A DNA stretch of 64,000 nucleotides, from contig OZ244065.1 in assembly GCA_965215505.1 (NCBI GenBank), positions 4,032,001 through 4,096,000 of the forward strand, given 5' to 3'. The notes beneath the pieces are model-generated. The model did not search any database. It worked only from the letters and a program-made list of their open reading frames with translations, and was not told where the DNA came from. The position numbers and the translations under genes were made by a program. Below are positions 25,006-63,400 of this stretch, in pieces; position 1 is the first letter of the stretch, and every line of letters begins with the position of its first letter. This stretch comes from Capsulimonadaceae bacterium. Its GTDB lineage: Bacteria; Armatimonadota; Armatimonadia; Armatimonadales; Capsulimonadaceae.

Positions 25006-25240
25006 GCGCCCGCCGCCTTTCCGCTCCCGCCAACCCCCCGCAGGCACGTCCTCGTCCGCGCGGCACACTAGGAAGAGTATAGCACAGGGGACGGCGTTGT
25101 GGGTGGGGAAGGGCACCCGCACTGGAAGGCAGACGGCAGAACAAAGGCAGACGGCAGAACGGCCCGCCGCCTCTCACGATAGAGGCAGCGGGCCGATGTT
25201 CCGCCCCCGGACGTGCGCCGGGGCGGTGCCCGTGTGCGGC

Positions 25241-43210: not shown

Positions 43211-43215
43211 GGCCT

Positions 43216-44265: not shown

Positions 44266-44301
44266 GGTGGCTCGATTATACCCGGTTCCTGTATACCCGG
44301 T

Positions 44302-45366: not shown

Positions 45367-46442
45367 CGGGGAGCCTCCGAAACGCGCCCTTCGCCCGACG
45401 TCCGGCGGCCCCGCCTGCGGACGGCTCGATAAAGCCCCTGAATGGCCGTGAAGGCGGACGCCGGGACGAGGAGCAGGGGGACGACCTGGGACAGTACGCG
45501 CCGGTCGGTTCCGTAGGCGCGCAGCAGCCGGAATGCCGCCTTCAGGCACCCCAGGTAGCTGGCCCGCAGCTTACCGTACCCGCCCTCGGTCTTGAACACG
45601 AGGACGAAATGGTAGACGAAGTTGATCTGGTGGGCCGACATCGCGCGGGCGGTCTGTTCGGAGTAGCCGATGGCCTGGGCGTGGCGGATCAGGGCGTGGT
45701 AGTTGGTGACGAAGACGCGGAAGAAGTCGAACCCCTCGTTGTTGTCGGTGCGGCGCGACAGGTAAGGCTCCGCGACGGCGTACAGGCCGCGCCCCGGCGC
45801 GAGGGCGTCCAGGAACATATAAGCCTGGGCCAGATTGGTCGCATAGCGGGCGGTGTAGTCGCGCCCCGCCACTGCCTCCCGGCGGAAGGCGATGCACGAG
45901 AGGAACGCGATGTGAGTCCGCAGAAAGGCGAGGGCCTGGTCGGCGTCGGCGAACAGCCGCTCCGGACCGTCCAGCTTGAAGGCGCGCGGCTTTTCCAATA
46001 CCCCCTGGTGCAGGACCTCCGCCTCCGGCTCATCCGGCGCGCGCCGGAACTCGCGGACGTTGAGTGCGAAGGCGTCCACGTCGGGGTGGTCCGCGATGAG
46101 GCCCAGCAGCCGGGCGACCGCGCCGGGCAGCAGCACGTCGTCGTCGGAGAGCAGGTACACCCAGGCCCCGCGCGCCTGGTTGGGGGCGTCGCAGAAGTTG
46201 GCGTCGCACCCGATGTTCTGGGGGCGGCGGACGGAGCGGAGCGTGACGCGGGGGAAGTCGGCCTGGGCGCGGGCGACGGCGGCGGGGGTGTCGTCGGGGG
46301 AGTGGTTGTCGATGACGACGACCTCGACCTGTCCGGCGAGGGCGGGCGTGACCTGGGCCAGGATGGCGCGGAGGGACTGGTCGAGCAGGGCGGCGCGGTT
46401 GTAGGTCGGAACGCACAGGGAGAGCGTGGGCATCATAGGCAT
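45363..46442 (-). CDS. GT2 glycosyltransferase D (RfbV-like)
   Basis: Same motifs; N-half nearly identical to B. Confidence 0.85.
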   Translation of the reverse strand: MPMMPTLSLCVPTYNRAALLDQSLRAILAQVTPALAGQVEVVVIDNHSPDDTPAAVARAQADFPRVTLRSVRRPQNIGCDANFCDAPNQARGAWVYLLSDDDVLLPGAVARLLGLIADHPDVDAFALNVREFRRAPDEPEAEVLHQGVLEKPRAFKLDGPERLFADADQALAFLRTHIAFLSCIAFRREAVAGRDYTARYATNLAQAYMFLDALAPGRGLYAVAEPYLSRRTDNNEGFDFFRVFVTNYHALIRHAQAIGYSEQTARAMSAHQINFVYHFVLVFKTEGGYGKLRASYLGCLKAAFRLLRAYGTDRRVLSQVVPLLLVPASAFTAIQGLYRAVRRRGRRTSGEGRVSEAPR

Positions 46443-46445
46443 TGT

Positions 46446-47480
46446 TTATCCCGCCTCCTGCGTTTTGGGTGCACGTCCGGTCCGGCGCTGTGTCAGCCGA
46501 TAGAAGCCGGCCGGCAGCAGGAGGCGCGGGACGATGAAGCGCAGGGAGAACGGGTTGAAGCGGTAGGCCCGCAGCACGCGCACCACGGCGTCAGGGTAGT
46601 TCGGGCGCAGCTCGTCATAGTGGCCGCGGTCTTTAAAGATCAAAGCGTAATGGTAAATAAACCTCAGATGCGCGCGGAGCGCGGCGTCAAGTGCCTGCCC
46701 CGAAAAACCCGCCCGGTGGGCATAGCGCAGGACAAGGTCGAAGTTCGTGACGAAGACACGGAAGAAATTGTACCCGCCCGCGTTCTCCGCCCGCTGGGCC
46801 AGGAGGGGCTGGCGTGTGGCGTAGAAGCCGCGCCCCGGCGCCAATGCGTCCACGAAGAAGAAGGCCTGGATCAAAACGGTCCCGACCTTGTCCGCGTAGT
46901 CTTTCCCCAGCACGTTCGCCCGGCGGAAGGCCATGCACGAGAGGAACACGAGGTGCGTACTCAGAAGCTCGAGCGCCGCGTCCGGGCTGTGCGTCACCAT
47001 GTCTTCCTTCAGAGTGAACGGCTGGGAGCCGCCTTCCTCAGAAGGGTCCTCCCGGAACATGCGGACGTTAAGCGCGAAGGCGTCGAATGTGGGATGCTCG
47101 GCGATGAGCGAGAGCAGCTTGGCGATCGCGCCGGGGAGCAGCACGTCGTCGTCGGAGAGCAGGTACAGGAACTCGCCGCGCGCCTGCGTCAAGGCGTCGG
47201 TGAAGTTGCGGTCCGGCCCGATGTTCTGGGGGCGGCGGACGTAGCGCAGGGCAACGTGGGGGAAGTCGGCCTGGGCCTTGGCGACGACGGCGGGCGTCTG
47301 GTCCGGGGAGGCGTTGTCCAGCACGAGGACCTCCACGCGGGCAGCCGCGTCGGGCGTGAGCTGCGACAGCACGGCCCGGAGCGCCTGGCCGAGCAGGGCG
47401 GCGCGCTTGTAGGTCGGAATGCACAAGGAGAGCGTCGGGACCGAGGGCGTTTGTGGTTGAAGCGGCGTTGAGCCTGTCAT
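46446..47480 (-). CDS. GT2 glycosyltransferase E (RfbV-like)
   Basis: Same motifs; N-part nearly identical to A; ATGA overlap with wzx. Confidence 0.85.
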   Translation of the reverse strand: MTGSTPLQPQTPSVPTLSLCIPTYKRAALLGQALRAVLSQLTPDAAARVEVLVLDNASPDQTPAVVAKAQADFPHVALRYVRRPQNIGPDRNFTDALTQARGEFLYLLSDDDVLLPGAIAKLLSLIAEHPTFDAFALNVRMFREDPSEEGGSQPFTLKEDMVTHSPDAALELLSTHLVFLSCMAFRRANVLGKDYADKVGTVLIQAFFFVDALAPGRGFYATRQPLLAQRAENAGGYNFFRVFVTNFDLVLRYAHRAGFSGQALDAALRAHLRFIYHYALIFKDRGHYDELRPNYPDAVVRVLRAYRFNPFSLRFIVPRLLLPAGFYRLTQRRTGRAPKTQEAG

Positions 47481-48922
47481 CGGAGGGAAGGCTCCGGCAC
47501 CGGCGGCCGGTCCGTCGGCGATGCCGAGACGGGCGGATGGGAGGGCGGGTCCGCGTGCCACTGTCGGCGCTTCTGGATGAATATCCGGTTGCCCAGCCCC
47601 AGCCCGACCCCGAGGCTGACGGCGAGATACCAGGCCATCATCCCGGTCGCGCCGAATGGCCTCCCGAGGAGTAGGCTGCCGAGCGCAGTCAGGCCGCCGA
47701 CCGTCAGTGACAGAGGCAGGAACGGCTCCTGCTTGTGTGCCCGCAGGTAGATGGATTCGGCCCCGACGATGTGGGCGCAGACGACCGCCCCCATCAGCAG
47801 CCCCAGCGGAGCGGGGTCGAGCAGGCGAACGCTCAGCCGGTGCGCGAACGGCTGGCCGTGGAGGACAACGGTGAGCAGCCAGAACCCGCACTCCCCGACG
47901 ACCAGGGCCAGCGTGGAGCGCCACAGGGCCGGGAAGAACATGCGGTCCATTTGTGCCCAATCGCGGCGGGCGACGAGGCTGCCGAAGGGGGCCGCTTTGG
48001 TCGAGACCCAGGCCAGCGAGATGGCGGCGATCGCGGACGTGATGCTCAGGCTCAGTCCCATCTTCCCCGCCCAGACCGGCCCCTGGAATATGAACAGGAG
48101 CGGGACGAACGTCTGCGTGATGAAATACCCGGAAAGCCAGGAGACGGCGATCTTCCACTGGAACGGCCAGATCTCGTGCCGCCAGTCCACCTGGATGTCC
48201 GGCCTCGCCGCCCGGAGCAGGTCGCCCAGGAACACGCGCTGCCGGACCAGGAGCCACCCGATCACCCAGGTCGAGCTGGCGATGCCGCCGATGGAGGCGG
48301 CATACAGCCCCCAGTGCAGCAGCAGCATCGTCCAGAACAGCAGGCTGCTCAGGACGGCCCCGACGAACTGCGCCTTGACGACCTCCGCCACCAGCCCGCA
48401 GCCTTCCAGGATGGACCAGAGCGGCGTGAACATCAGGCCCATCGCAAGGCCCGCCGACAGGAACAGCCACGGCCCCTCCCAGGCGATGGGCGGCACGCCG
48501 GGCGGGAGGCGGTGGAAGGTGCGGAAGAAGACCACGCCCACGGGGTACACGACGGCCAGGACCAGTACCGCCATGATGCCGTACCACCGCAGGCCGCGCC
48601 GCAGCAGCGAGGCCAGCCGCGCCTTGGCGACCGGGTCCCCCTCCAGCGTCCGCCGCGATGTCCACTCCAGCCCGGCCCGCTCGTGGGAGGCGAACTGCAT
48701 CAGGACCAGCCCAATGCCCAGCTCGAAGAAGATCTGGAGGCCCATGATGCTGCCGAACGCGGCGTAGTACCCCTGCTCGTACTTGTTCAGGGACCGCACC
48801 AGCAGGGCCAGCGTGACGATGCCCCCCAGGGCACCCCAGCCGCGCGAAAGTATCGCGAAGCCGACCGCACGGTCAACGCCGGCCAGGCGGCCCAGCTTTC
48901 CGATGATGCCCGGTGTTCTCAT
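47477..48922 (-). CDS. wzx: Wzx-type flippase
   Basis: About 12 TMs, EQGYY..F.S, FELG, QWKIAVSW, RAHKQEP; position in the locus. Confidence 0.75.
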   Translation of the reverse strand: MRTPGIIGKLGRLAGVDRAVGFAILSRGWGALGGIVTLALLVRSLNKYEQGYYAAFGSIMGLQIFFELGIGLVLMQFASHERAGLEWTSRRTLEGDPVAKARLASLLRRGLRWYGIMAVLVLAVVYPVGVVFFRTFHRLPPGVPPIAWEGPWLFLSAGLAMGLMFTPLWSILEGCGLVAEVVKAQFVGAVLSSLLFWTMLLLHWGLYAASIGGIASSTWVIGWLLVRQRVFLGDLLRAARPDIQVDWRHEIWPFQWKIAVSWLSGYFITQTFVPLLFIFQGPVWAGKMGLSLSITSAIAAISLAWVSTKAAPFGSLVARRDWAQMDRMFFPALWRSTLALVVGECGFWLLTVVLHGQPFAHRLSVRLLDPAPLGLLMGAVVCAHIVGAESIYLRAHKQEPFLPLSLTVGGLTALGSLLLGRPFGATGMMAWYLAVSLGVGLGLGNRIFIQKRRQWHADPPSHPPVSASPTDRPPVPEPSLR

Positions 48923-48935
48923 AAAGGTCTGATGC

Positions 48936-49991
48936 TCATGGAGGCCCGAAGCTCAGGACGGTGCGGCGGAAGCCGTCCTCGACCGTCGTCCCCGGCTCCC
49001 AACCCAAGGCGCGAACCTTGCCGATCTCGGGGCAGCCGCGCGTGATCTTGCTCTGTAGATAACCGTCGGTCGGGACCGGCTGCCGGACGACACGCAGGTT
49101 CTTCTCGGGGAACAAGGCGACCAGGCGGTGGGCGAGGTCTAAGATGCTGACCTCCGCCTTGTCATTGCCGACGTTATAGGCCTGCCCGCTCTCGCCCATC
49201 AGCAGCACGGTGAAGAAGCCCGCAGTGGCGTCCGCGAGGTAGCAGAAGGCCCGCGTCGCGCGCCCGTCGCTCTTCATCACGATGTCCCGGCCCGCGACGA
49301 TGTCGGCGACGAAATCGGCGAAGACGCGCCCGTCCGTCAGCGACATGCCCGGTCCATAGGTGTGGAACGGCCGGGCGACATTTGCGGGGACGCCGTATTG
49401 GGCGTGCCAGGCGACGCACATGGTTTCGCCCATCCGCTTGCTCTCGGCATAGCAGGAGCGCACCTCCGTCGGGTCCACGGAGGCGTAATCCGTCTCGCGC
49501 GTCGGCACCTGGGCGTCGGTGATCTGGCCGTAGACCTCGCCGCTGCTGAAAAACAGGAAGCCCGAGACGCCCGACGCGCGGGCCAGCTCCAGCAGGTGGT
49601 GCGTGCCGAAGACGTTGGCGGACAGCGTCCCCACGGGATCGGACTTGTAATACTTCGGGCTGGCCTGGGAGGCGGCGTGGATGATGTAATCCACGCGCCC
49701 GCCGATGTCGAGCGGCTGGGACACGTCCCCGACGACCAACCGCAGATCTGAACGGCCCTCGTAGGCGGCGAACCGCTCCCGCGCCCGGCCCTCGTGGCGC
49801 ACCAAGCCCAAAACACGCGTATTCTGTCCGGGCCGCCGCTCATTGAGGAAAAGTAAGGTTTCGACGATGTAGGCGGGCAGGAAGCCCGATGCGCCCGTGA
49901 CCAGGACGGTCTTCCCCGCCAGGTCATCCCAGGGCAGCGGCGCGGACGTGATCGCTTCCAGGTCTTCGGTGACGATTGGGTGGCGCATCAT
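48936..49991 (-). CDS. NAD-dependent epimerase/dehydratase (UDP-glucuronate decarboxylase-like; possible YerF-type reductase)
   Basis: TGASGFL, HAASQASP, SSGEVYG, RSCYAESKR, HTYGPG, RAFCY. Confidence 0.8.
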   Translation of the reverse strand: MMRHPIVTEDLEAITSAPLPWDDLAGKTVLVTGASGFLPAYIVETLLFLNERRPGQNTRVLGLVRHEGRARERFAAYEGRSDLRLVVGDVSQPLDIGGRVDYIIHAASQASPKYYKSDPVGTLSANVFGTHHLLELARASGVSGFLFFSSGEVYGQITDAQVPTRETDYASVDPTEVRSCYAESKRMGETMCVAWHAQYGVPANVARPFHTYGPGMSLTDGRVFADFVADIVAGRDIVMKSDGRATRAFCYLADATAGFFTVLLMGESGQAYNVGNDKAEVSILDLAHRLVALFPEKNLRVVRQPVPTDGYLQSKITRGCPEIGKVRALGWEPGTTVEDGFRRTVLSFGPP

Positions 49992-51076
49992 CGCGCCCGG
50001 CCCATGTCACTCTTGCCTATGTGCAAAAGCCAGTCGGCAAGCAGGGGCCGGGCCTGGGAGTCAAACGACAGCTTGGTCTTCTCCATCCGCCCCGCCCCGC
50101 GCGTCAGGATGCAGCCGAGGGTGTCGCCGGTGTTCTTCTTGTCCAGCCGCATGGCCGCCAGAATCCGCTCCGGGTCCGCCCCCGTCAGGACATCCTGGTA
50201 CGGCGCGTAGTAGGGCACCAGCCATTCCTGGAGGTCGTGAAAGTAGTCCTCGGACACCCAGCCGAGCTTAACGGAGAAGAAGGTCGCCGTCAGGACGCCC
50301 AGTGTCACCGAGATGCCGTGCGGGATGCCGTAGTCGGTCGCCGACTCGTAGGCGTGGCCGAAGGTGTGTCCGTAGTTCAGCAGGTTGCGGACGCCTTTAT
50401 CGAACTCGTCTTCCTCGATGAACTTCTGCTTGATCGCAAGAGAGTCCCAGACGATCTCGCGCAGCGACTCGGGGCGGGCCTCCCCACCGGTTAGCTTGGG
50501 ACGCAGGCGAGTGACCGCCTCCTCGCCCGCGATCAGGTGCAGCTTGATCGCCTCGCCCAGCCCGCTCCGGATCTCGTCATAAGGCAGTGAGCCTAACACG
50601 TCGAAGGCCAGCAGGACCTGATGCGGCGGGTAGAAGGTGCCGAGCTGGTTCTTGTAATGCCCGACATTGATGGAGCTTTTGCTGCCGATGCAGCTATCGC
50701 ACTGGGCGAGCAGGGTGGTGGGAACCAGGCTCCAGCGGACGCCCCGGAAGAGGGTGGAGGCGATGAAGCAGCTCAAGTCCTGCATGACGCCGCCGCCGAC
50801 GACCAGCAGCAGGCAGTCCCGCCGGAAGCCCGCGCCCAGCAGCCACTCGATGTGCGGGGCCAGGGCATCCAGGCTCTTCGCGCCCTCGGTCGCCTCGATC
50901 AGCCGGACGTTCTCGGGCGGCAGGGTGTCCGCAAAGGCTTCCGGGTACAGCCTGTGGACTTGGGCGTCCACGAGGGCGAAGGTGCGCCGCCCCTGGGCGG
51001 CGGCCTGGATGGCTTCGCGCAGTCCCGGCGCTTCGGTGACATCGTAAGGGTGGGATTTGCTCTGGATCTGCATCAT
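49988..51076 (-). CDS. 3-dehydroquinate-synthase-like sugar-phosphate cyclase
   Basis: GGGVMQD, PTTLLAQCDSCIGSK, KNQLGTFYPP, SGLGEAIK, LNYGHTFGHA, HG, DKK. Confidence 0.85.
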   Translation of the reverse strand: MMQIQSKSHPYDVTEAPGLREAIQAAAQGRRTFALVDAQVHRLYPEAFADTLPPENVRLIEATEGAKSLDALAPHIEWLLGAGFRRDCLLLVVGGGVMQDLSCFIASTLFRGVRWSLVPTTLLAQCDSCIGSKSSINVGHYKNQLGTFYPPHQVLLAFDVLGSLPYDEIRSGLGEAIKLHLIAGEEAVTRLRPKLTGGEARPESLREIVWDSLAIKQKFIEEDEFDKGVRNLLNYGHTFGHAYESATDYGIPHGISVTLGVLTATFFSVKLGWVSEDYFHDLQEWLVPYYAPYQDVLTGADPERILAAMRLDKKNTGDTLGCILTRGAGRMEKTKLSFDSQARPLLADWLLHIGKSDMGRAR

Positions 51077-51085
51077 AGGGTGGGG

Positions 51086-51754
51086 TCAGCGGCAGGTGAA
51101 GCCGCCGTCTACTAAAATCGTCTGCCCCGTCAGGTAGGTGTTCGAGTCGCCGCACAGCCAGGCCACGAAGCGGGCAATCTCGGCCGGCTCGGCCAGCCGC
51201 CCGGCGGGGATCGTCGCCTCGATCTTCTCCAGGTCGGCGGGCGAGTTGTTCTGCCGCGTCAGGTCCGTCGCCACATAGCCGGGGCAGACCGAGTTGACCA
51301 GGACGCCGAAGGGGGCGAGTTCCACGGCCGCCGTCCGGGTCAGCCCGTTCAGGCCCGCCTTGACCATGCTGTAAGCCCCGCGCCGCTCCTTCGTCACGAC
51401 TCCGAAAATGGAGCTGATGTTGACGACGCGGCCCCAGCCCCGCGCCTTCATGCCGGGCGCAACGCCTTGAAGAAGCTGGAGTGGGGCGGTTAGGTCCACC
51501 TGCACCATCTCCGACCAGCCCTCGGGCGTAATGGCTTCTAGGTCGTTCAGGACGTTGATGCCGGCATTGTTGACTAAGATATCCACCGCCTCGCCGTGTT
51601 CGCCAAGCCAGGCGGCGATGGAGGCCGGGTCGGACAGGTCCAGCCTCGCCCGGCCCGCATCCAGGACGGACACGTCCTGCGCGCGCAGGGCATCGGCGAT
51701 GGCCGCGCCGATGCCTCGGGCCGCGCCGGTCACCAGGGCGATGCGCTGGGGCAT
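51086..51754 (-). CDS. Short-chain dehydrogenase/reductase
   Basis: TGAARGIG, NNAG, YSMVK, NSVCPG, VDGG. Confidence 0.88.
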   Translation of the reverse strand: MPQRIALVTGAARGIGAAIADALRAQDVSVLDAGRARLDLSDPASIAAWLGEHGEAVDILVNNAGINVLNDLEAITPEGWSEMVQVDLTAPLQLLQGVAPGMKARGWGRVVNISSIFGVVTKERRGAYSMVKAGLNGLTRTAAVELAPFGVLVNSVCPGYVATDLTRQNNSPADLEKIEATIPAGRLAEPAEIARFVAWLCGDSNTYLTGQTILVDGGFTCR

Positions 51755-51758
51755 GGTT

Positions 51759-52568
51759 CTAGCCCTGCCCGTGGACGGCGGCGATGGACTTGGAGTAGCG
51801 CTCCTGCATCATCGCCAGGCGCGTGTCGTCCTCGCGGTGGATCGAGCCGTAGTAGTCCTTCTTGTTCTGGAGCCACATGATCTCGAACTCGACCGCCTTC
51901 AGGAACGCCTCCTGCCGGTTCTCCAGCGCGGCGGGGCAGCCGAAGACGACCTTGCGCGTCTCGTAGCGGTCGATGTGGCCGGGCGGGAAGGCCTGGAAGA
52001 AGGGCAGGGACAGGACGGACACGCCGCCGCCGACCACGACGTGCAGGCCCTTGGCCTTGGCCTTGGCGGCGACGTCTATACAGATCTTGAGGATACCGTC
52101 GTTGTTGACCGAGGTGCGGTCCAGCCCCATCGAGCCGGTCAGGTCCACGCGGCCCAGGACGATCCCGCTGAGGCTGCCGATCTCGGGGATTTCCAGCATC
52201 TTGTCGAAGTTCTCGATGGCTGTGATCGTTTCGAGGTTAATCAAATAGTCCATGTCCTCACGCTGGTCGTCGGGGAAGACCAGCTTGACGGCCTGCAAGT
52301 ACTTCTTGAGGGCGTAGGGCGTCTCCACCATCGGCGCGACCAGATGCTCGGTGCCAAGGCTTGCCGCCTCGATCATGTCCTTGATGGCCTCGCAGCCGCC
52401 GATCTTCAGGCTCAGGCCCAGGCCCGCCTTCAGGCTGACCTCTTTGAGACGCATCGCTTCTTCCAGGCGTGTCCCTTCGGCCTCGAACTCGGCCTTGACA
52501 CCCACCACGTTGTGGCTCTCGCGCATCTCGGTGAGGAGCGCGACCATTTTCTTTTCCAGGGCGTTCAC
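51759..52568 (-). CDS. HpcH/HpaI aldolase / citrate-lyase-family protein
   Basis: KAEFEAEG, KIGGCEA, APMVET, NLET, GRVDL. Confidence 0.75.
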   Translation of the reverse strand: MNALEKKMVALLTEMRESHNVVGVKAEFEAEGTRLEEAMRLKEVSLKAGLGLSLKIGGCEAIKDMIEAASLGTEHLVAPMVETPYALKKYLQAVKLVFPDDQREDMDYLINLETITAIENFDKMLEIPEIGSLSGIVLGRVDLTGSMGLDRTSVNNDGILKICIDVAAKAKAKGLHVVVGGGVSVLSLPFFQAFPPGHIDRYETRKVVFGCPAALENRQEAFLKAVEFEIMWLQNKKDYYGSIHREDDTRLAMMQERYSKSIAAVHGQG

Positions 52569-52590
52569 GATTATTCTCCTTTGCTCATCC

Positions 52591-54390
52591 CTATTCGGTA
52601 ATGAGGTTGCTTGCTAACTCTTCGCGGCTCAGGAAAGGCGCCATGTCTTCCAGGGGAGCCGACACCATCCGCCCATCATCCAGCTTCCGCGACGAGACTT
52701 TGGGCGCGAACTGCTGGCCCAGGTCCAGGAAGACCTCGCACATCTGCGGCCCGTCACCCGCCAGCGTTTCGCGCAGGGCGTCTTCCAGGTCAGCCGCCGT
52801 CCGGGCGGCGTGGTAGCCGAATCCACAGGCGTCGGCCAGTTTGTCGAAGGGGGCGAAAAACAGCCCGCTGTCGGGGCCGCAGCCGATCAGGTTGTCGGGG
52901 AAGTAGTTCTGCTGGGTCTGACGGATGGAATGATACCCCTGGTTGTTCAGGACGAAAAGCTTGATCGGCAGCCTGTGCAGGGCAATCGTCTGGAGTTCCG
53001 CCAGGTTCATCTGGATGGAGCCGTCGCCGGCCAGGCAGACGATCCGCTTGCCGCCGCTCCCGAAGGCCGCGCCGACGGCGGCGGGCAGGTCGTAGCCCAT
53101 CGAGGCGCAGCCGGAGTTCGTGTAGAGCCGCTGGCCGGGCTTGATGTTCGCGGCCTGGAAGGAGGTGACGCAGGCCGTCCCGTCCCCGGTCACGACAATC
53201 TGGTCCTCGGGCAACTGGCTGAACAGGGCGTCCATGAAGCAGTACGGGTTGATGCCGTTCTTGCTTTCCCAATACTCCGGCAGCGTAACCGGGTATTTGT
53301 GTACGCGCTCCCGGCACCAGGCCAGCCACTCGGAGTGCATCGCGGGGACGGGCCGGACGGGCTGACCGAGGAGCGTGTGCAAAACGTCGGCGACGTTCGC
53401 CTGGATCGGCAGGTCCGGGGACAGCGTCGGCTTTCGGAGTTCGGCGGCGTCAATGTCCACGACCACTTTATAGGCGCGGTGGGCGAAGTTCTCCCAGTTG
53501 TAGCTGATCTGCCGGACGTTCAGCCGGCTGCCCAGCACGAGCAGGAAGTCGGCGTTCTGGACGGCGAAATTGCCCGCCCGGTCCCCGATGGAGCCGGGCC
53601 GCCCGCTGTAGCCGGGGTGGGAGTTCGGAACCAGATCGTGGGCGTTCCAGGCGGTGACGATGGGAACGCCCCAGCGGTCGGCCAATGCCAGCAGTTCGGC
53701 CTGCGCGCCCGCCAGGCGGACGCCGGACCCGGCCATGATGACGGGCCGCTTGGCCTCGCCGCACATGCGCGCGATCTGCTCGCAGATCTGGGGCAGCCGG
53801 GCCGTGTCGTCCGATACGGGGCCTAGCTCGGCGGGGTCGAAGCCGGGCAGAGTGTCGGGGTCAACACTCGCGCCCTGGACGTTCATTGGGATGTCCAGCC
53901 AGACCGGGCCGGGCCGCCCCGCTTTCGCGAGGTACAATGCTTTTTCCAGATGGTAGCGGATGCTCTGCGGGTCGGTCACCATCTCGGCGTACTTGGTCAT
54001 CGGCGCGACGACTCGGACGATGTCAAGCTCCTGGTCGCCCAATTGCCGCAGGGGCAGGTCGGTGCTCCGGACGACCGTCTCCCACTTGACCTGGCCGGAG
54101 ATGACGATCATGCCGATGGAGTCGGTCCAGGCCCCCCAGACGCCCGTGATGGCGTTCGTCCCGCCCGGCCCGGTCGTGACATTGACGGCGGCCAGCCGGT
54201 TCGTCAGCCGGTAGTAGCTCTCGGCGGCCATAGCGCAGGCCTGCTCGTGATGGCAGCAGACGTACTTCAAGCCCTCGCATCGCCCGACGGCGTCATTGAG
54301 GTGCATGGCGCCGCCGCCGGTCACGAGGAAGATGTGTTCAATGCCGTGCCGCACCAGGGTCTGCGCGATGTAATCTGAGACTTTAATCAT
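52591..54390 (-). CDS. ThDP-dependent acetolactate-synthase-like enzyme (YerE-like carboligase)
   Basis: HHEQA, TTGPGGTN, ISGQVK, GRPGPVWLDIP, GDGS..N ThDP motif. Confidence 0.85.
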   Translation of the reverse strand: MIKVSDYIAQTLVRHGIEHIFLVTGGGAMHLNDAVGRCEGLKYVCCHHEQACAMAAESYYRLTNRLAAVNVTTGPGGTNAITGVWGAWTDSIGMIVISGQVKWETVVRSTDLPLRQLGDQELDIVRVVAPMTKYAEMVTDPQSIRYHLEKALYLAKAGRPGPVWLDIPMNVQGASVDPDTLPGFDPAELGPVSDDTARLPQICEQIARMCGEAKRPVIMAGSGVRLAGAQAELLALADRWGVPIVTAWNAHDLVPNSHPGYSGRPGSIGDRAGNFAVQNADFLLVLGSRLNVRQISYNWENFAHRAYKVVVDIDAAELRKPTLSPDLPIQANVADVLHTLLGQPVRPVPAMHSEWLAWCRERVHKYPVTLPEYWESKNGINPYCFMDALFSQLPEDQIVVTGDGTACVTSFQAANIKPGQRLYTNSGCASMGYDLPAAVGAAFGSGGKRIVCLAGDGSIQMNLAELQTIALHRLPIKLFVLNNQGYHSIRQTQQNYFPDNLIGCGPDSGLFFAPFDKLADACGFGYHAARTAADLEDALRETLAGDGPQMCEVFLDLGQQFAPKVSSRKLDDGRMVSAPLEDMAPFLSREELASNLITE

Positions 54391-54414
54391 AAACCGTTCT
54401 ATCCCGATGCTAGT

Positions 54415-55461
54415 CTATCCCGAAACTACTCTGTTCCACTCGATGGTGCGCCGCAGCGCCTCGTCCAGCCCCACACGCACCTCAAGCCCTAGCTCGGTCC
54501 GGGCGCGCTCCGTCGAGGGCACATAGCGCGAGGCGGGCGTCCCGGCGACCGCCTCCTTGCCGATCAGCACCGGCGGGGCGGGCGTGAACCGCGAAGCGAC
54601 TGCCGAGGCCGTTTCCCCGATCGTCATCGCCTCCTCGGAGCCGACGTTGTAGGCACGGCCAGGCAGGCCGCGCAGCAGGATCGTCCACAGCCAGACGGCA
54701 AGGTCTGCGGCATAAAGGTAAGACCGGAACGGCGTCCCGTCCCCGCCGACCCGGACCGGGCCGCCCGCAAGCCCGTCGCGGATGAAGTTGCCGACCGCGA
54801 AGTGCGAGTCCAGCGGCAGGAACGGGCCGACGAAGGCGAAGCCGCGGGCGATGCCGACGTCCAGCCCGTGCTTCTCGGCGTAAACGGCGCAGAAGAGTTC
54901 CGCCAGCCGCTTACCTTCCCCGTAGGCCGCGCTTGCCTGCGCGCAGTCCGGCGCCCCGACATATTCCTCGGGGACGTGGCTGATGTCCGGCGGCTGCGCC
55001 CCATAGACCGCGCCCGACGAGGTCAGCAGGAACCGGCCCGCACCGCACTGCCGCGCGAATTCCAGGGTGCGCCGCGTCCCCTCGGTGATCGTCTCGATCA
55101 TGCCCAGCGGGTCATCGCGGTTCAAGGAGGCTTTCGCCTCGGTCGCGCCATGGACGACATGGGAAAACTCCCCCGGCGGAAACGGGAAGGAGCGGATATC
55201 ACCCTGATGGAACCCGATGGCCGGGTGCGCGGCCAGGCGTGGGTGCTTGGCCGCGAAGGCGGACGGGTTGCGCGTCAGTATCAGCGCTTCGGCCCCCAAA
55301 CCGAGCGCATCATTGGCCCAGGCGAAGCTTTCCAGAAGCCAGCAGCCGAAGAACCCCGTCCCGCCGGTGATGAACAGCCGCCGACCGCGCAGCCCCTCCC
55401 AGAGTTTCGCGGTGTGGGTCAGGACGTGGTCCAGGTCTGCGGCCAGCGGGTTGACGTTCAC
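54415..55461 (-). CDS. NAD-dependent epimerase/dehydratase
   Basis: [37 protein letters not shown]. Confidence 0.82.
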
Positions 55462-56780
55462 TCGTGCGACGCGCGCACGAAGTCGTGCAGGACCGAGAGC
55501 ATGTAGTCTTTGTGCGCGTCGCTCAGGCCCGGATAGACGCCCACCCAAAACACGTTGTTCATCACGAAGTCCGTGTTGTGGAGGTCGCCGATCTTGCGGT
55601 GGGCGATGCCGGCATAAGCGGGCTGTTTGAGCAGGTTGCCCGCGAACAGCAGCCGCGTCCCGATCTTCTTGGTGTCCAGGTGCCGCACTAGCTGGTCGCG
55701 CGTGAACGGCGCATCCTCGCGGACGGCGATGGGGAACCCAAACCAGGACGGGTCGGAGTTCGGCGTCGCCTGCGGCAGGATCAGATGCTCCTGCAAGTCC
55801 TGCAAGCCTTCATGCAGGTAGGTAAAATTGCGCCGCCGGGCCGCGATGAACTCGGGTAGCTTCTTGAGCTGCGAGACGCCCACGGCCGCCTGCATGTCCG
55901 TCACCTTCAGGTTGTAGCCGATGTGCGAATAGGTGTACTTGTGGTCATACCCGCAGGGCAGGTCGCCCAGTTGCCACTCGTACCGCTTGCCGCAAGTGTT
56001 GTCCTTGCCCGGCTCGCACCAGCATGCCCGCCCCCAGTCGCGGTATGACTCGGCGATGACTTTGAGCTTGACGTTGTTCATGAAGACGGCCCCGCCCTCG
56101 CCCATCGTGATGTGGTGGGCGGGGTAGAAGGAGGCCGTGGCGATGTCGCCGAACGTCCCGACCTTCTGGCCGTTGTAGCTCCCTCCGATGGCGTCGCAGC
56201 AGTCTTCGACGAGGTACAGGTCGTGCTTCTTGACGAACTCGGAGATGGCCGTCATGTTGCCGGGGTTGCCCAGGGTGTGCGCGAACATCAGGGCGCGCGT
56301 CTTGGGAGACAATGCCTCTTCGAGCTGCCGGATGTCCAGGTTATAGTCGGGGATAGTCACGTCAAGGAAGACCGGGACCAGGCCGTTCTGGATGATCGGG
56401 TTGACCGTCGTGGGGAAGCCCGCCGCGACCGTGATGACCTCATCGCCGGGTTTCAGCCGCCGGTCGCCCAAGGTAGGTGAAGTGAGCGTGGTCAGGGCAA
56501 CCAGATCGGCGGAGGAGCCGGAGTTGACCAGCAGGGCCTTGCGGACGCCGCAGAAGCGGGCGAACTCGCGCTCGAATTGGGTGGCGAAGCGGCCCGTGGT
56601 CAGCCAGAAGTCCAGGGTTGAGTCCATCAGGCTCTGCATGTCTGCGGCGTCGAAAACGCGGCCCGAGACGGGCACTGCGCTGACGCCCGGCACGAACTCG
56701 CGGGCGGCAAATGCCTCGTCGTGGTACTGGACCACCAGGTCTGCGATCTGCGCCCGGAGCGCGTCGGCTTTGTCCGTCAT
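55458..56780 (-). CDS. rfbH: CDP-4-keto-6-deoxy-D-glucose 3-dehydrase (E1)
   Basis: [25 protein letters not shown] (His in place of the PLP Lys), CWC..TC Fe-S motif, YDHKY. Confidence 0.92.
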
Positions 56781-56817
56781 TGGGAATCCTTCTAAGGTCC
56801 GCCCCCGGCGGTGGGGG

Positions 56818-57819
56818 TCAGGGCGTCAAAAACTCAGTATACCACCGGATCGTCTTTTCCAAGCCCCCGTTGAGTGTAAAAAGCGGCTCCCAGTCCAGCA
56901 TCCGGCGGGCCTTGGCGGCGCTCAGGTACTGGTGCTTGATCTCGTTGGAGGCCTCGTTGCGGACTTCCGGCGTCAGGTCCGACCCCATCAGCTCCAAGAT
57001 CTTGTGGGTCAGGTCCAGCACGGTCACCTGAAGCTCGTTGGAGAAGTTGAAGGCCTCGCCGCGCAGGCTCGGGTCCTTCGCCATGCTCTCGGCCAGCAGC
57101 ATGTAGGCCGCCGCACCGTCCTCGACGTAGAAGTAGTCGCGGATGAACGAGCCGTCGGAGCGGATGACCGGGGCCTGGCCGCGCAGGATGGAGCGGACGG
57201 TGCCGGGCACGATCCGGTTCCAGTTGAGGTCCCCCCCGCCGTAGAAGTTGCCGCAGCGGGTGATCGTCACCGGCAGGTCGTAAGACTTGGCGTAGGTGTA
57301 GGAGATCAGGTCGGCGCAGGACTTGGACACGTCGTAGGGGTGCTGGCCTTGCAGGGGCGTGGTTTCATCATACGGCAGGACCTCCTGGTCGCCGTAGGCC
57401 TTGTCCGAGGAGGCGATGACGATCTGCTTGACGCGCGGGGACCTCCGGCAGGCTTCCAGCAGCCGCCACGTCCCGGCGATGTTCGCCTCGAAGGTGGAAA
57501 CCGGGTTGCGGTTGGCGATGCCGACGATGGTCTGGGCGGCCAGGTGGATGACGGTGTCTATCTCGTGTTCGCCCAACGCGCGCTCCATCATCTCCTGGTC
57601 GGTGATGTCGCCCCGGACGATCTTCACCTTGTCCAGATGGCCCGACCGGACCAACTCGCAGTCGGGTATCCAGTCCCGGACGAGGCAGACGACGTCCGCG
57701 CCCGATGCCACCAGCGACTTCACCAGCCACCCGCCGACCAGCCCGGTCGCGCCGGTCACGAAGGTCGGGCGGTCCCGCCAAAAATCTTTATCTACTTTGT
57801 CTTTATCCGTTTGTATCAT
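56818..57819 (-). CDS. rfbG: CDP-glucose 4,6-dehydratase-like (RfbG/DdhB)
   Basis: FW....[39 protein letters not shown]; lies between rfbF and rfbH. Confidence 0.72.
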
Positions 57820-58583
57820 CAGACTTTCCAGGGCGCGCGGCCCGACTGCCACAGGTTCTCTAAAATCTTCTTCTCGCGCAGCGTATCCATGCACTGCCAG
57901 AAGCCTTCGTGCCGGAAGGCGGCGAGCTGGTTGTCGGCGGCCAGGCGCTCCAGGCCGTCCACCTCCAGGCTGCTCGCGTCGCCCTCCAGATAATCAAAGA
58001 CCTGCGGCTCCAGGACCATGAAGCCGCCGTTGATCCAGCCCTCGCCGATCTGCGGCTTCTCGCTGAACTCGCGCACCAGGTCGCCCTCAAAGACCAGCCC
58101 GCCAAAGCGAGACGGGGGGCGCACGGCGGTGATGGTGGCGAGCTTGCCGTGGGCGCGGTGGAACTCCAGGACTTTGCCGAGGTCCACGTCGCAGACGCCG
58201 TCGCCGTAGGTGACCATGAAGGCCCCGTCTTTGAGCCATCGCTCCAGCCGCTTCACCCGGCCGCCGGTCTGCGTACTCTGGCCCGTGTCCATCAGGTGGA
58301 CGTTCCAGTCCTCGGTGTCTTTCTCCAGGTCTTCTACCGTGCCGCTCGCGAGGTCCACGCGCAGGGAGCCGCCGAGGCTGTAGTGGTCCAGGAAGAAGCG
58401 CTTGATGACCTCGCCCTTGTACCCCAAAGCCAGGAAGAAGTCCTTGAACCCGTAGTGGGCGTAGGAGCGCATGATGTGCCAGACGATGGGGTGTTCGCCG
58501 ACCTCCACCATGGGCTTGGGCTTGATCTCGGTTTCTTCGGCCAGGCGCGTCCCCAAGCCTCCCGCCAGTACGACGACTTTCAT
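57819..58583 (-). CDS. rfbF: Glucose-1-phosphate cytidylyltransferase
   Basis: [44 protein letters not shown]. Confidence 0.93.
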
Positions 58584-58788: not shown

Positions 58789-60354
58789 CTACCGCTTCTT
58801 GACGAGCGGCGGTGCGTCCCCAACCTCCGCCGGTGGCCGCGCGCCGCTGCCGTTGGCGGGCTTCGGCAGGGATGCGCCCGGCCCGGTCGCCCTGTCCCCG
58901 GCGCGCGGCGCGCGGGCGTAGTCCACCGCGACGGCAAGGAGGAAGGCCAGCACGACCGGCAGCAGGCAGAACAGGCCGAGGCGCGTCATGCCCGGCTCGC
59001 CGGTCGTGGGCGGGAGGGCGCTGTCGATGATCGACATCCGGCTCTGGGCCGAGGCGTTGTTGATCTTGATGCTCTGCGCCTGCGTCAAGGTTTCGCGCAG
59101 GATGTCCGCCTGGAAGCCGCGCTCGGCCTGGAGGCGGTCCAGCTCGAACGACAGGTCCCGGCTGACGCCCAGGCGGCGCTCGGCCTTCGCGATCTTGTCG
59201 AAGAGGGTCGCTTGCCGGGCGTAGAGCGAGTTGATGAGCTGGTCGTTGTTCAGGTCCGGAGTCGTCAGGCGCTCTTTGACGCCCTGGGTCTGGAGGTCGA
59301 GCTGCTTCTGGTCGGCATCCAGCCGCGTTTGCGCCGTGATGACGGCGGTGTTCTCCGGGCCGTAAAGGTTTGCGGCCGTGGTGTAGGCGATCCGGTCGTT
59401 GGTGACGCGGGTGCGGATGTCGGACAACTGCGGGTCGTCCGTCGGGAGGCGGGACAGGTCGCGGAGCTGGGCGGTGATCCCCTTCTCCCGCGCCAGCCGG
59501 GCGGCCTGGGCGGCGCGCAGGTCGGTCTGCACCACGTCGTACTGGCTGTTGAGCGTGTTCAGTGCGGCCGAGGCGGAGGCGGCGTCCGTGTCCGCGCCGG
59601 GCGTCGCGCCCTCGGCCGCCGACGTGCCGGAGCGGCCGCCGCCCGCCGAGCGCGGGTTGGCGCGCGCCACCTCGCGGCTGAAGTCGCGCAGCCGCTTCAA
59701 AGACTGGTTGTAGTCGGCCGTCGCCTGCCGCACCTGGGCGTCCGCCCCGTGCAGGAGGGCGGTGCCCTGGTCGCTGTCGCTGTTGATGAAGTAGTACTTC
59801 AGGGCGGCGGCGTAGGCGTTGGCGGCCTGGGCGGCGGCGTCCTCGACCTGTGCAGGCCGGGGAGCGTGCGTCAGGCTGAGGCGCGGGGAGCCGGGCAGGG
59901 TGACGCTGATGTAGAGCAGGCCGTCGGGGTTGTCCTCGGGCTTGACCCCTTTCGCCAGCAGGCCTGCGGCGGCGGCCTCCGAGGGCAGCGTCTTCGCGCC
60001 GTAGATCCGGGTGAGTTTGACCTGATGCTCCACCTGCGTCGCCATTTCGCGGCTCTTCAGGACGCCGATGTAGTGCTTGTTCCCGCCGCCCCCGCCGCCG
60101 CCGAGCAGGCCGGCCAGCCCGCCGCTCGCGGCCGGCTGCTGCATGGCGACGGAGACGGAGGCGGTGTAGGAGCGGGGGACCAGGAGCAGGGCCGCCGTCA
60201 GCAGGACGGCGAAGAGCAGCGGCCCCTTCCAGAGCCAGCCCCCGGCCTGCCGCCGGAATGCGCGTGCCAGGGCCGGCCCGTCTATAATGATTTCGTCTTG
60301 TTCCAATTTGTTAGCGGCGTTGTTTGCGGCGGACGGTTTCGGCGGCCGGGCCAT
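58789..60354 (-). CDS. Polysaccharide co-polymerase (Wzz/Wzc/GumC-like, no kinase domain)
   Basis: N-terminal TM + P.SYTA; LKSR; coiled coil; IIDSALPP + C-terminal TM; no Walker A. Confidence 0.75.
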   Translation of the reverse strand: MARPPKPSAANNAANKLEQDEIIIDGPALARAFRRQAGGWLWKGPLLFAVLLTAALLLVPRSYTASVSVAMQQPAASGGLAGLLGGGGGGGNKHYIGVLKSREMATQVEHQVKLTRIYGAKTLPSEAAAAGLLAKGVKPEDNPDGLLYISVTLPGSPRLSLTHAPRPAQVEDAAAQAANAYAAALKYYFINSDSDQGTALLHGADAQVRQATADYNQSLKRLRDFSREVARANPRSAGGGRSGTSAAEGATPGADTDAASASAALNTLNSQYDVVQTDLRAAQAARLAREKGITAQLRDLSRLPTDDPQLSDIRTRVTNDRIAYTTAANLYGPENTAVITAQTRLDADQKQLDLQTQGVKERLTTPDLNNDQLINSLYARQATLFDKIAKAERRLGVSRDLSFELDRLQAERGFQADILRETLTQAQSIKINNASAQSRMSIIDSALPPTTGEPGMTRLGLFCLLPVVLAFLLAVAVDYARAPRAGDRATGPGASLPKPANGSGARPPAEVGDAPPLVKKR

Positions 60355-60450: not shown

Positions 60451-63400
60451 TTACAGCAGACCCCCCAGGATTTTCAGAGTGATGGCCGAGCCGAGCAGGC
60501 CCTGGAAGAAGGTGCTGAAGCTGTTCCCGCTCCGGCTCACGTTCTCGGCCAGCACCTTGGTCGGTACCAGGATCAGGTCGCCCGGCTGGATCGCGCCCGC
60601 GGCGGCGGCGGGGATCAGGCCGCCCCCGGCGTGGATGACCTCGATCCGGTCCTTGGCGGCGTCCGGGGTGAAATCGCCGGCGTACTTGATGTAATAGTCC
60701 ACGGACTGGCCCGGCTTGAAGACGACCCCGCGCCCGGCGTAGACCGCCCCGACGACCTGGACGGTCGTGGGCGTCTCGGGGACGACGATGGTGTCGCCGT
60801 CTTTGAGCAGGAAGTCCTCGGAGCCGCCGGGGCGTCTCAAGGCGTCCCGCAGCCGGATGGCGACGTTGCCGTTCGGCTGGAGCTGGCTCGGGGTCAGCAG
60901 CCGCCCCTGCGAAACCGGGTTGATGGTCCGCAGGTTGTCCACCAGCCCCCCGACATTGGGGTTAGCGGCGCTGCCGCTGCTCGGCGTGATGCCGGGGATG
61001 GCGATGCCGCTGCTCGACGCCCCGCTGGCCGCGCTGCCCGCCGCTTCGATCAGGGCGAGGCTGGCCTTGGCCCGCTCGCGCTGGTACTGGCTCAAGTTCA
61101 GCATGTCGCTCATCTTGCTGATGGTCTGGGCGAGGTCCATCTGCCCGGTCGTCAGCAGGGTGTCCGAAGTGCGCGTGAACTCGGCCCCCTGCGGGAACGC
61201 CTCGGGCAGCAGGCCGCCCGCCTTGCGAACGGCGTCGCTCAGGCGCGTCGTGCTGTCTATCGGGAACGGGCCGGGGTGGGCGACGGCCCCGGTCACGGTC
61301 ACGATGGGCGGGTGGTCCTTGATGGTGCCGTTACCCTGCACCGTCACCACGTCGCCGTCCTGGAGGACGGTGTCGCCGCTCGGGGCCAGCACGCCCGGCC
61401 CCTGGTAGGCGACGACGATCGGCGGCGTCACGGCCGGAGACGTGGACGTGTTCGGCTGCCGGGCGTGGGAGACCATGACCACCGTGCCGCCGCCGGGCTT
61501 GTAGGCCCCGGACAGCTTGACCAGGTCGCTGATCTTCATGCCCTCGCCGCGCGCGTACAGGCCCGGCGCGACCACGTCGCCCAATATCTTGACGGTGTGG
61601 TCCGGCGTGAAGTGCGCCTCGCCGATGCGGAAGACGGCCAGCACGTCGTTATCCTGGACCGAGGCGTCCTCCGCCGCGTCCCCCGCCAGCAGGGCGCGCA
61701 GGTTGACGTAGTCATAGGCGAACGTGCCGTCGCCGCGCTGGTGCAGCAGGACCGCCCGGTTTAAATAGGCGTCGGGGAGCGGCCCGCCGGTGTCGAGCAG
61801 CAGGTCGCTGACCTTCATGTTGTCGGACTGCGTGTAGAGGCCGGGCCGCTGGACGTCCCCGCGCACCTCGACGGAGCGCCGCCCCAGGTAGGCCACGTCC
61901 TGGCGCGAAAAGACCCGCAGGGTGTCGAATGTCTTCAAGGGCAGGTTCTGGGCCGGGTCGCCGTCGAGCGCCGCCGCGACGTTGACCGACACGACGGCGG
62001 TCGTATTGTCGGCGTTCAGCCGCGTCAGCTCCGCCCGCCCCAAGTAGGCGTCATACAACGGCTGCCGCGCCCGACGCAGCAGGTCGGCGACGCGCATCCC
62101 CGGCGTCAGGGCGTAGTCGCCTGGCTGGTCCACCTCGCCGACAACCGTGACCCGGTTGGTCAGGATGGCGCGCACCGAGGACACTTCCACGCTGTCGCCG
62201 TCGTACAGAGGCGTCCGGGCGGCCCTGGCGCGGTCGCTCAGGTTGACGTCCACGATGATGCGGCCCGTCCCGTTGTTCACGGTGTCTATGTGGACGTTCT
62301 GGTCCACGCCCGAGGGTTTGACGCCGCCCGCGTAGTTCAGGGCGTCCAGGAGAGTCTCGGCCGGGTTCAGCTCGTAGACGGCCTGCTGGCGCACCTCGCC
62401 GCGTACCGAGACGCGCGAGACAGGGGCGGGGATGTAGATGTTGTCGCCGGACTGGAGGTTGACGTCGCCCTGACGCGCGCTCGGGCGGCCCGTGCCCGCG
62501 CTGATCAGCGGGTAGATGTCCAGGACGCCCACGGGCCGCCCGCCGCGCAGGACGCGGATGTCGCGCAGGGAGCCGTTTGCCGTCGGCCCGCCGGTCGCCT
62601 GGAGGACGCTGAAGGCGGTCGTGCTGGCCGGGACCTGGTAGGTGCCCGGCTCGAAGGAGTTCCCGCTGACCGTCACCTGGATGGTGCGGAGCTGACGCAG
62701 GCTGATGGAGACTTCCGGTTTCCGGTACAGCCGGGACAGGCGCTGGATCAGGGTCGCCTCGGCCTGAGCGGCCGTCCTCCCGGCAACGCTGAGGCGGCCC
62801 GCGCCCTCGACGCTGATGCCGCCCTGCGCGTCTACAGTCGCATTGAACTCGCGCGGGGTCAGGGTCAGGGCGCTGTAGCGGACCGTCAGCGAGTCGCCCG
62901 GCTGGAGCTGGTAGTTCGGCGGCAGGGAGGTGAGGACGTTGCGGTACAGCGAGGAGATCGGGTCGGCGAGTTGGCCCCCGACGGCGTCCGTCGCGCCCGC
63001 CCCGCCGTTCTGACCGTTGTTTTGGCCGCCGCTTTGCAGCAGGGCGTCATCGCCGGGGAACTGGATGTCGCTGCCAGGAGCGGCCGTGTCGCCGGCAAAA
63101 GCACCGCCGGTGTAAGCGTCATCCGGGGTCCGGCGGCGGGGCGTCGTCTGCCCGCTCACGTCGCCGCTCCCCGTGCCGTCCTGACCGCCGTACCCATTGT
63201 TGTAGGCCTGGCCGTTATATGTTTGGCCGTTATCGCCCGTGCTGCGCGTGTCCGGCGCATTGGGATCGTTCAAGAGAGCGGCGTTGGGATCATTCATATT
63301 GCCCCCGGCCACGCCGGCAGCCGCCGCGCGCCGCCGCGCCGCCGCGCTCTGGCCCGACCCGTCCGCGCCGCCGTTCGTGTCCTGGCCGTTCGTGTCCTGG

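Follow-up and report, generated by a model that had tools for sequence, protein, structure and literature searches.

A CDP-3,6-dideoxyhexose gene cluster of a Capsulimonadaceae bacterium with a YerE-like carboligase and a dehydroquinate synthase paralogue: most likely a known type of route to a long-branched cell-surface sugar

Gene content of the cluster

A run of nine genes was analysed in a 64,000-nucleotide stretch of the genome of a Capsulimonadaceae bacterium (Armatimonadota; contig OZ244065.1). This whole stretch is referred to below as the window, and all positions are those of the window unless a locus is named. The genes encode enzymes of CDP-3,6-dideoxyhexose formation together with a YerE-like thiamine diphosphate (ThDP)-dependent carboligase, a divergent aldolase, three short-chain dehydrogenases/reductases (SDRs) and a paralogue of dehydroquinate synthase (DHQS). 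Synthesis of an uncommon surface sugar that bears a long carbon chain as a branch, by a type of route already published, is the most likely function of the operon. The DHQS relative, whose function is a prediction, probably tailors the side-chain precursor instead of closing a carbon ring.

The nine open reading frames (ORFs) fill positions 48936..58583, all on the reverse strand, with gaps of -91 to +37 nt between them; the ORF of the 4,6-dehydratase and rfbF overlap by 76 nt. The families returned by profile searches agree with the gene run, coordinates and description given in an initial annotation of this DNA, which had been made from the letters and their translations. The features are as follows:

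57819..58583, reverse strand, rfbF, glucose-1-phosphate cytidylyltransferase (TIGR02623 equivalog, 356.1 bits, cut-off 300.25)
56818..57894, reverse strand, NDP-hexose 4,6-dehydratase, rfbG-like (PF16363, 178.6 bits; TIGR02622, 209.8 bits, cut-off 278.45)
55458..56780, reverse strand, rfbH/E1, CDP-4-keto-6-deoxyglucose 3-dehydrase (NF011936 RfbH, 730.4 bits, cut-off 423)
54415..55548, reverse strand, extended SDR (SDRe1), candidate YerF-like branch-ketone reductase (PF01370, 111.2 bits)
52591..54390, reverse strand, YerE-like ThDP-dependent carboligase (three TPP domains)
51759..52568, reverse strand, divergent HpcH/HpaI-fold (class II pyruvate) aldolase (PF03328, 35.6 bits, cut-off 25)
51086..51754, reverse strand, classical SDR (SDRc; PF13561, 164.6 bits; FabG-like in PDB)
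49988..51076, reverse strand, DHQS paralogue of family TIGR04425 (both DHQS Pfam domains; TIGR04425, 417.7 bits)
48936..49991, reverse strand, extended SDR (SDRe2), epimerase or reductase (PF01370, 149.5 bits)

Acceptor sugar, carboligase and aldolase

RfbF, the 4,6-dehydratase and RfbH are predicted, with support at the level of their families, to supply the acceptor CDP-4-keto-3,6-dideoxyhexose. The best NCBIfam model for the dehydratase is that of CDP-glucose 4,6-dehydratase (TIGR02622), but its score lies under the cut-off, as listed above. The best PDB match of SDRe1 is UDP-glucuronate decarboxylase (96 bits), a result that is uninformative on its role, as is the FabG-like match of SDRc; SDRe1 is proposed to act as a YerF-like reductase of the branch ketone.

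The best PDB match of the ThDP enzyme was 8rph with 427.5 bits, while the best acetolactate synthase reached 243.4 bits; this entry represents JanthE, which has been characterised as a YerE-like enzyme (PMC12188165). The protein also scores under every acetolactate-synthase cut-off of NCBIfam. With three ThDP-enzyme domains and JanthE closer than acetolactate synthase, it falls among the YerE-like enzymes, for which addition of an acyl anion derived from a 2-oxo acid to a ketone is predicted, again with support at family level. Its gene is encoded in the window together with those for CDP-4-keto-3,6-dideoxyglucose. A CDP-3,6-dideoxyhexose pathway extended by a YerE-like carboligase, as the initial annotation had it, is thus borne out by RfbF, RfbH, the 4,6-dehydratase and the JanthE-like enzyme. 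More than 200 YerE-like clusters have been found in silico according to a review (PMC12247030).

Because a PDB sequence search with the aldolase returned YfaU alone (E = 0.046), a fold search was used for this protein. Its AlphaFold model (pLDDT 92) gave HpaI, HpcH, YfaU and SwHKA as the best Foldseek matches (E from 8e-9, TM-scores 0.53-0.60), and the class II pyruvate aldolases (HpcH/HpaI) are the group to which both the Pfam gathering score and the fold assign it. Two of its residues, E113 and D142, do not vary in the alignment (A2) and align, at 21% identity, to E and D of an HpaI-like protein; they may correspond to the metal-binding Glu and Asp of the HpaI class. The family comprises 6188 proteins at E <= 1e-10, which, where named, are called 'aldolase/citrate lyase family protein'. 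In one related locus (L088:5842-7509) two HpcH-like aldolase copies were observed in tandem after the DHQS relative.

Comparison with known pathways

Long acyl-branched sugars were shown by Steitz et al. (2022) to be formed by a scheme in which a pyruvate aldolase forms a gamma-hydroxy-2-oxo acid, a YerE-like enzyme (ErwE, MMAR_2332, MyGE) adds this acid to CDP-4-keto-3,6-dideoxyglucose, and a reductase then acts (PMC9306805). The scheme covers erwiniose (ErwE/F/I/J), caryophyllose (MMAR_2331 aldolase, MMAR_2332 ThDP enzyme) and gastriose (MyGE/MygI/MygF). The clusters of this 'unifying scheme' resemble the window in that a single glycan cluster unites the genes of CDP-4-keto-3,6-dideoxyglucose formation with those of a pyruvate-type aldolase, a YerE-like enzyme and an NAD(P)H reductase. 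Moreover, the Mycobacterium marinum aldolase MMAR_2331 is described as 'aldolase/citrate lyase family' (PMC9306805), the database name that the family of the window aldolase also bears. That the aldolase could build a longer 2-oxo acid donor had been proposed in the initial annotation; the HpcH/HpaI fold is in keeping with this and fits the 'unifying scheme', and the proposal, being covered by the three steps set out in PMC9306805, belongs to an already published paradigm.

Relative to the 'unifying scheme', the window adds the DHQS paralogue and the small SDR, both absent from the main text of PMC9306805, and is without an E3 reductase; in 9 of the 20 related loci with full flanks, a NeuB-like synthase replaces the aldolase. 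The pathway to yersiniose A of Yersinia pseudotuberculosis (DdhA-D, YerE, YerF) shares the acceptor sugar and the ThDP-dependent branching at C4 (PMC9306805, PMC12247030). It differs in that YerE takes pyruvate and installs a two-carbon branch, whereas the aldolase and the two tailoring enzymes of the window imply a longer, functionalised donor. The branched-sugar reading is supported, and the new part is the role of family TIGR04425 beside a known type of pathway.

Family and residues of the DHQS paralogue

The DHQS relative scores above the TIGR04425 cut-off of 400 bits (417.4 bits when the genome was searched); the family carries the NCBIfam name 'AroB-related putative sugar phosphate phospholyase (cyclizing)', and its members are routinely labelled '3-dehydroquinate synthase' in databases. 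Like AroB, the protein has the DHQS fold, both Pfam domains, the metal ligands and the contacts of 3-deoxy-D-arabino-heptulosonate 7-phosphate (DAHP). A literature search found no paper naming TIGR04425, 'AroB-related' or 'sugar phosphate phospholyase', though published surveys of YerE clusters may cover the gene; nor was a paper found that joins dehydroquinate synthase to O-antigen and a branched sugar, or to diulosonic acids.

A quick IQ-TREE phylogeny separated 86 rows of the family from 19 AroB rows on a branch of length 1.26 with a Shimodaira-Hasegawa-like approximate likelihood ratio (SH-aLRT) of 100. The tree was built without an outgroup of EEVS (the synthase of 2-epi-5-epi-valiolone), DOIS (the synthase of 2-deoxy-scyllo-inosose) or DDGS (the synthase of desmethyl-4-deoxygadusol), and these cyclases were compared by PDB bit scores instead. 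DHQS entries gave 118-153 bits, DOIS (2d2x) 109.3 bits, EEVS (4p53) 79.9 bits and DDGS (5tpr) 74.5 bits. Of the phylogeny suggested for this protein in the initial annotation, the separation from AroB was thus recovered on the tree, and the other three cyclases are placed by PDB scores, all lower than those of DHQS.

Conserved residues were compared in an alignment of 127 family members (119 family proteins and eight copies from Verrucomicrobiota) and 29 AroB sequences. Thirteen positions, which in the Aspergillus nidulans DHQS structure are contacts of the metal and of DAHP (R130, D146, K152, N162, E194, K197, K250, R264, N268, H271, H275, H287 and K356), are invariant in the 29 AroB sequences and in the family, save for K197, which is H in one of the eight Verrucomicrobiota rows. 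Differences from AroB lie beside these contacts: HGE is changed to HGI (E in 29/29 AroB, I in 125/127 family members), GGK is changed to GSK, and a glycine-rich loop is altered. The altered substrate motif that had been read earlier (DSCIGSKSSIN, compared with D-S-x-V-G-G-K) is accurate in its letters; its D, K and N are kept, however, and the changes fall on neighbouring positions, not on contact residues. The conserved positions point to a DAHP-like pocket, and they are silent on the outcome of the reaction. Since the presumed carboxylate and phosphate contacts of DAHP are kept, the substrate is probably a free keto-acid phosphate.

A second AroB for shikimate or quinate metabolism, placed in a polysaccharide cluster by chance, would account for the presence of all catalytic residues and for the match to the aroB model TIGR01357. 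That match (258.4 bits) is under the cut-off of 305, however, and a canonical aroB with 368.8 bits on the same model is encoded elsewhere in the genome, about 268 kb away; the separate aroB that the initial annotation suggested looking for is present, and the DHQS-like gene is a paralogue. The separate clade and the fixed differences (HGE to HGI, GGK to GSK) likewise argue against such a role, as do the rarity of the family in the phylum (2 of 301 Armatimonadota genomes over the TIGR04425 cut-off) and a neighbourhood that is conserved across phyla and always sugar-related. This explanation is considered very improbable. Members of family TIGR04425 seem, rather, to tailor sugar acids in pathways of surface glycans, and not to be 3-dehydroquinate synthases.

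Conservation of the gene order

The closest homologues of the DHQS relative were found in Armatimonadota metagenome-assembled genomes (74-85% identity). The whole gene order recurs in five Armatimonadota loci, two of them complete and three lacking one extended SDR each. SDRe2 is present in L004, L005, L007 and L063 and missing in L003, L006 and L058. The identity of rfbF among Armatimonadota loci is 81-97%. The core arrangement was also found in Verrucomicrobiota and on metagenome contigs, and because of this recurrence the arrangement is regarded as going beyond chance. Co-occurrence of the module with rfbF and rfbH, which had been suggested as a check, was accordingly found in Armatimonadota, Verrucomicrobiota and metagenome loci.

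Among 401 Verrucomicrobiota genomes, seven had a match to the DHQS relative at E <= 1e-95, three of the seven scoring over the family cut-off. In six neighbourhoods from this phylum the ThDP, SDR and DHQS-like genes were adjacent in five, and rfbH and rfbF were both present in two. A YerE-like gene was found in 85 of the 401 genomes and was accompanied by the DHQS relative in only five of the 85. Unusual branched sugars are predicted on members of little-studied phyla. For comparison, 16 loci on long contigs, covering strong and weaker matches, were chosen by hand from the 80 YerE-bearing genomes without the DHQS relative. They contained rfbH in 16/16, rfbF in 15/16, an SDRe1-like gene near the YerE-like gene in 12/16, an HpcH-like aldolase in 1/16 and a NeuB-like gene in 4/16. 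From these counts, rfbFGH, the YerE-like gene and the extended SDR are taken as the common core, and the pair of DHQS relative and small SDR as an add-on.

Metagenomes were scanned with family-specific motifs. At least 598 stretches with 584 relatives were obtained; the best 80 were analysed, and the sample therefore leans towards the clade of the window. These loci were divided by the identity of their DHQS relative to the window protein, not by context, into a closer group (>=47.5%, 38 loci) and a more distant group (42 loci). The gene directly upstream of the DHQS relative is a classical SDR in 29 of the 30 closer loci with enough flank, and in the more distant group this holds for 31 of 34; in the single closer exception (L064) the SDR is about 0.5 kb further off.

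In the closer group, a ThDP gene was present in all 22 loci whose upstream sequence reached 3.4 kb or more, and rfbH and rfbF in 9 of the 11 where it reached 8 kb or more (misses: L061 and L094). The 20 closer loci with full flanks contained either an HpcH-like aldolase (10) or a NeuB-family gene directly downstream (9), never both, and neither in one case (L065). The NeuB-family gene (PF03102, 122 bits; far under the PseI and NeuB cut-offs) substitutes for the aldolase in, for example, L053:10526-11620, L073:11077-12186 and L057:8360-9481. HpcH-linked and NeuB-linked labels are interleaved on the tree. NeuB-type enzymes, with phosphoenolpyruvate (PEP), and HpcH-type enzymes, with pyruvate, each use an aldehyde to form 3-deoxy-2-ulosonic acids. 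From the mutual exclusion of the two genes, the reaction that adjoins that of the DHQS relative is predicted to be formation of a 3-deoxy-2-ulosonic acid.

Among the 42 loci of the more distant group, a ThDP gene occurred once (L090). Of the 13 distant loci in which each flank spans 5 kb or more, 7 held a cytidylyltransferase of the PseF-like or KdsB-like kind; none of the 38 closer loci did. A GmhA-like SIS gene was adjacent in 17/27 and a bona fide HpaI-like aldolase was present in 11/42; other genes seen in this group were IolG-like or MptE-like or encoded a 2-hydroxyacid dehydrogenase or a class III aminotransferase. The TIGR04425 model scores relatives linked to a CMP-transferase higher than the window protein (e.g., L100, 458.6 bits). 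On the tree, the ThDP-linked relatives form a clade nested among the others (SH-aLRT 89-99), with L057 as a long-branch outlier.

A recurrent cassette of the distant loci (L097:6092-12882; L100:8659-15145; L054:5006-13303) consists of genes for a PseF-like cytidylyltransferase, an HpaI-like aldolase, a 2-hydroxyacid dehydrogenase, a GmhA-like isomerase, an SDR, the DHQS relative, an IolG-like oxidoreductase, an MptE-like protein and sometimes a class III aminotransferase. It may represent a route to an undescribed CMP-activated ulosonic acid.

Predicted viral contigs of IMG/VR held 109 relatives; in 80 of these loci (L154-L233), the neighbourhood included a ThDP (YerE-like) gene 12 times, a cytidylyltransferase 37 times and an HpcH-like aldolase 24 times. 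Searches of plasmid and phage collections returned only matches at the level of aroB (<=39.5% identity).

Proposed pathway and alternatives

The favoured reading, held at a probability of roughly 0.5, is that a caryophyllose-type C4-branched CDP-3,6-dideoxyhexose is formed and that the DHQS relative eliminates phosphate without cyclising. The product would be a CDP-activated 3,6-dideoxyhexose with a long polyhydroxyalkyl branch at C4, of the class of erwiniose, caryophyllose and gastriose. Four steps find support at family level. RfbF would provide CDP-glucose, which would be converted by the 4,6-dehydratase and RfbH/E1 into CDP-4-keto-3,6-dideoxyglucose, with the aid of a reductase partner that is required and is not encoded in the cluster. 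The YerE-like enzyme would decarboxylate a 2-oxo acid and add the acyl anion to C4, and the branch ketone would be reduced by one of the extended SDRs.

The donor is envisaged to arise as follows. The HpcH-fold aldolase would join pyruvate to a phosphorylated aldose, in the simplest case erythrose 4-phosphate, to give a DAHP-like 3-deoxy-2-heptulosonate 7-phosphate. The DHQS paralogue would then perform the first half of DHQS chemistry only (transient oxidation by NAD+, beta-elimination of phosphate and re-reduction) and release a 7-deoxy-6-keto acid with the 2-oxo group intact. Reduction of the new ketone by the small SDR would yield 3,7-dideoxyheptulosonate, which has the carbon skeleton of the donor for a 1,3,4,5-tetrahydroxyhexyl branch; the branched dideoxy sugar predicted from it would have 12 carbons. 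The finished sugar would be flipped by Wzx and then built into the surface polysaccharide. A 1,3,4,5-tetrahydroxyhexyl group is the side chain of caryophyllose (PMC5706390).

The conserved DAHP-like pocket suggests that the DHQS relative binds an ulosonic acid with a terminal phosphate. In ulosonic acids, the 2-oxo (anomeric C2) centre is the site at which ThDP carboligases as well as CMP-transferases act. Elimination, release and reduction by the SDR are favoured because both of these consumers need the 2-oxo centre, which ring closure turns into a tertiary carbinol.

If the DHQS relative were a true cyclase, as the initial annotation had considered, a six-membered carbocycle would form either in the free DAHP-like acid or, once ligated to the CDP-sugar, in the side chain, and a carbocycle-bearing glycan would result. 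No characterised enzyme of the superfamily is known not to cyclise; all catalytic residues of DHQS are kept, an SDR able to reduce a ring ketone is almost always adjacent (counts above), an IolG-like oxidoreductase stands beside the gene in distant loci, and the family name says 'cyclizing'. Members of the superfamily are listed in PMC4426668. On the free acid, however, ring closure would destroy the 2-oxo group used by the co-occurring ThDP enzyme (22/22 loci) or by the CMP-transferase, and no enzyme of the cluster could activate or attach a free carbocyclic acid. On a CDP-sugar adduct, the presumed carboxylate contacts K250 and R264 should vary, yet they are invariant, including in relatives without a ThDP partner; the PDB scores of DOIS, EEVS and DDGS, all under those of DHQS, also speak against a cyclase. 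With the DAHP carboxylate and phosphate contacts kept and the alternative consumers needing a 2-oxo acid, the carbocycle proposed earlier fits the data poorly and is judged unlikely.

Caryose and bradyrhizose, to which the product had been compared, share with it a quaternary C4 and a higher carbon number, and both occur in surface glycans. According to PMC9092360 it is unknown how caryose arises, and for bradyrhizose the genes are stated to be unknown beyond a proposed 11-gene cluster around a dTDP-glucose 4,6-dehydratase (PMC4743980), which leaves room for a cyclase. Nothing ties the cluster of the window to either sugar. That a ring is closed on the aldolase product or the ligated chain, so that the Armatimonadota, Verrucomicrobiota and viral clusters make a sugar with a cyclohexane (quinate-like) unit, is a slightly more doubtful proposition still. 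If true, it would define a new class of carbocycle-bearing glycan residue and provide the first genetic handle on carbocyclic lipopolysaccharide sugars. Action of the DHQS relative on the CDP-sugar adduct as such was considered as a candidate and rejected, since the same pocket is found in relatives without a ThDP partner.

The order of events could also be reversed, with the DHQS relative and the small SDR acting before the carbon-carbon bond is made: a tetrose phosphate (e.g., erythrose 4-phosphate) would become a 4-deoxytetrose, which the aldolase or the NeuB-like enzyme would condense with pyruvate or PEP. The gene set and the co-occurrence counts fit this order equally well, and pyruvate plus a C4 aldehyde has been proposed for the aldolases of Mycobacterium marinum and Rhodopseudomonas palustris, the source of the aldehyde not being named (PMC9306805). 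The retention of all contacts for the carboxylate end and the pyranose of DAHP would, however, be unexpected for a four-carbon substrate, and oxidation beside a free aldehyde appears chemically awkward. This order of steps is regarded as rather improbable.

Several points weigh against phosphate elimination without ring closure and against parts of the pathway proposed above. We know of no member of the DHQS superfamily that stops short of cyclisation, and the enol intermediate of DHQS cyclises spontaneously; the word 'cyclizing' in the family name points the same way. The residue roles are carried over from the A. nidulans DHQS structure. The argument from gene context is indirect, as the CMP-transferases of the distant loci could serve another sugar. 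In the aldolase, a nearly invariant Lys (K55) occupies the column of the catalytic Arg of HpaI, in an alignment at 21% identity. Family searches of the window proteins detected no dedicated E3 reductase (AscD/DdhD type) in the cluster, and the only match elsewhere in the genome, with an E3-like protein from a related locus as the query, had 21.8 bits. Some related loci carry after rfbH a gene with NAD_binding_1 only (L052:1894-2673; L073:4429-5175), which may encode a reduced E3-like reductase; the window is without it. Finally, where the main text of PMC9306805 describes the clusters for caryophyllose and of R. palustris, it mentions no DHQS-like gene.

If phosphate elimination by the DHQS paralogue proves true, the DHQS superfamily would gain its first activity without ring closure. 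The source of the terminal methyl group in caryophyllose-type side chains would also be explained, and chiral deoxy 2-oxo acids would become accessible to biocatalysis as substrates of YerE-like carboligases.

Flanking genes and minor observations

Downstream of the nine genes, a Wzx-like gene and five glycosyltransferase family 2 (GT2) genes were found, which confirms the wzx and glycosyltransferase flank noted earlier; the Wza-like exporter is encoded upstream of the run. The flanking features are as follows:

60451..63996, reverse strand, Wza-like exporter, unusually long with 1181 aa (Poly_export and five SLBB stretches)
58789..60354, reverse strand, candidate chain-length (polysaccharide co-polymerase, PCP) protein, 521 aa (no Pfam match; transmembrane (TM)-like segments only near residues 40 and 454)
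47477..48922, reverse strand, Wzx-like flippase (NF041503, 78.6 bits, below cut-off; 9 TM-like segments)
42182..47480, reverse strand, five tandem GT2 genes (PF00535, 64.9-78.9 bits each)
40836-42695, candidate Wzy polymerase (no Pfam match; at least 8 TM-like segments)

Small PF05635 genes ('23S rRNA intervening sequence protein') were observed inside the sugar operons of two unrelated loci (L052:3658-4050; L073:3893-4432). Upstream of the glycan region, the window also encodes a Cache-GGDEF-HD-domain signalling protein (19658-22018), a GH63/MGH1-like hydrolase (22252-25122) and an alpha-L-fucosidase (26076-27347).

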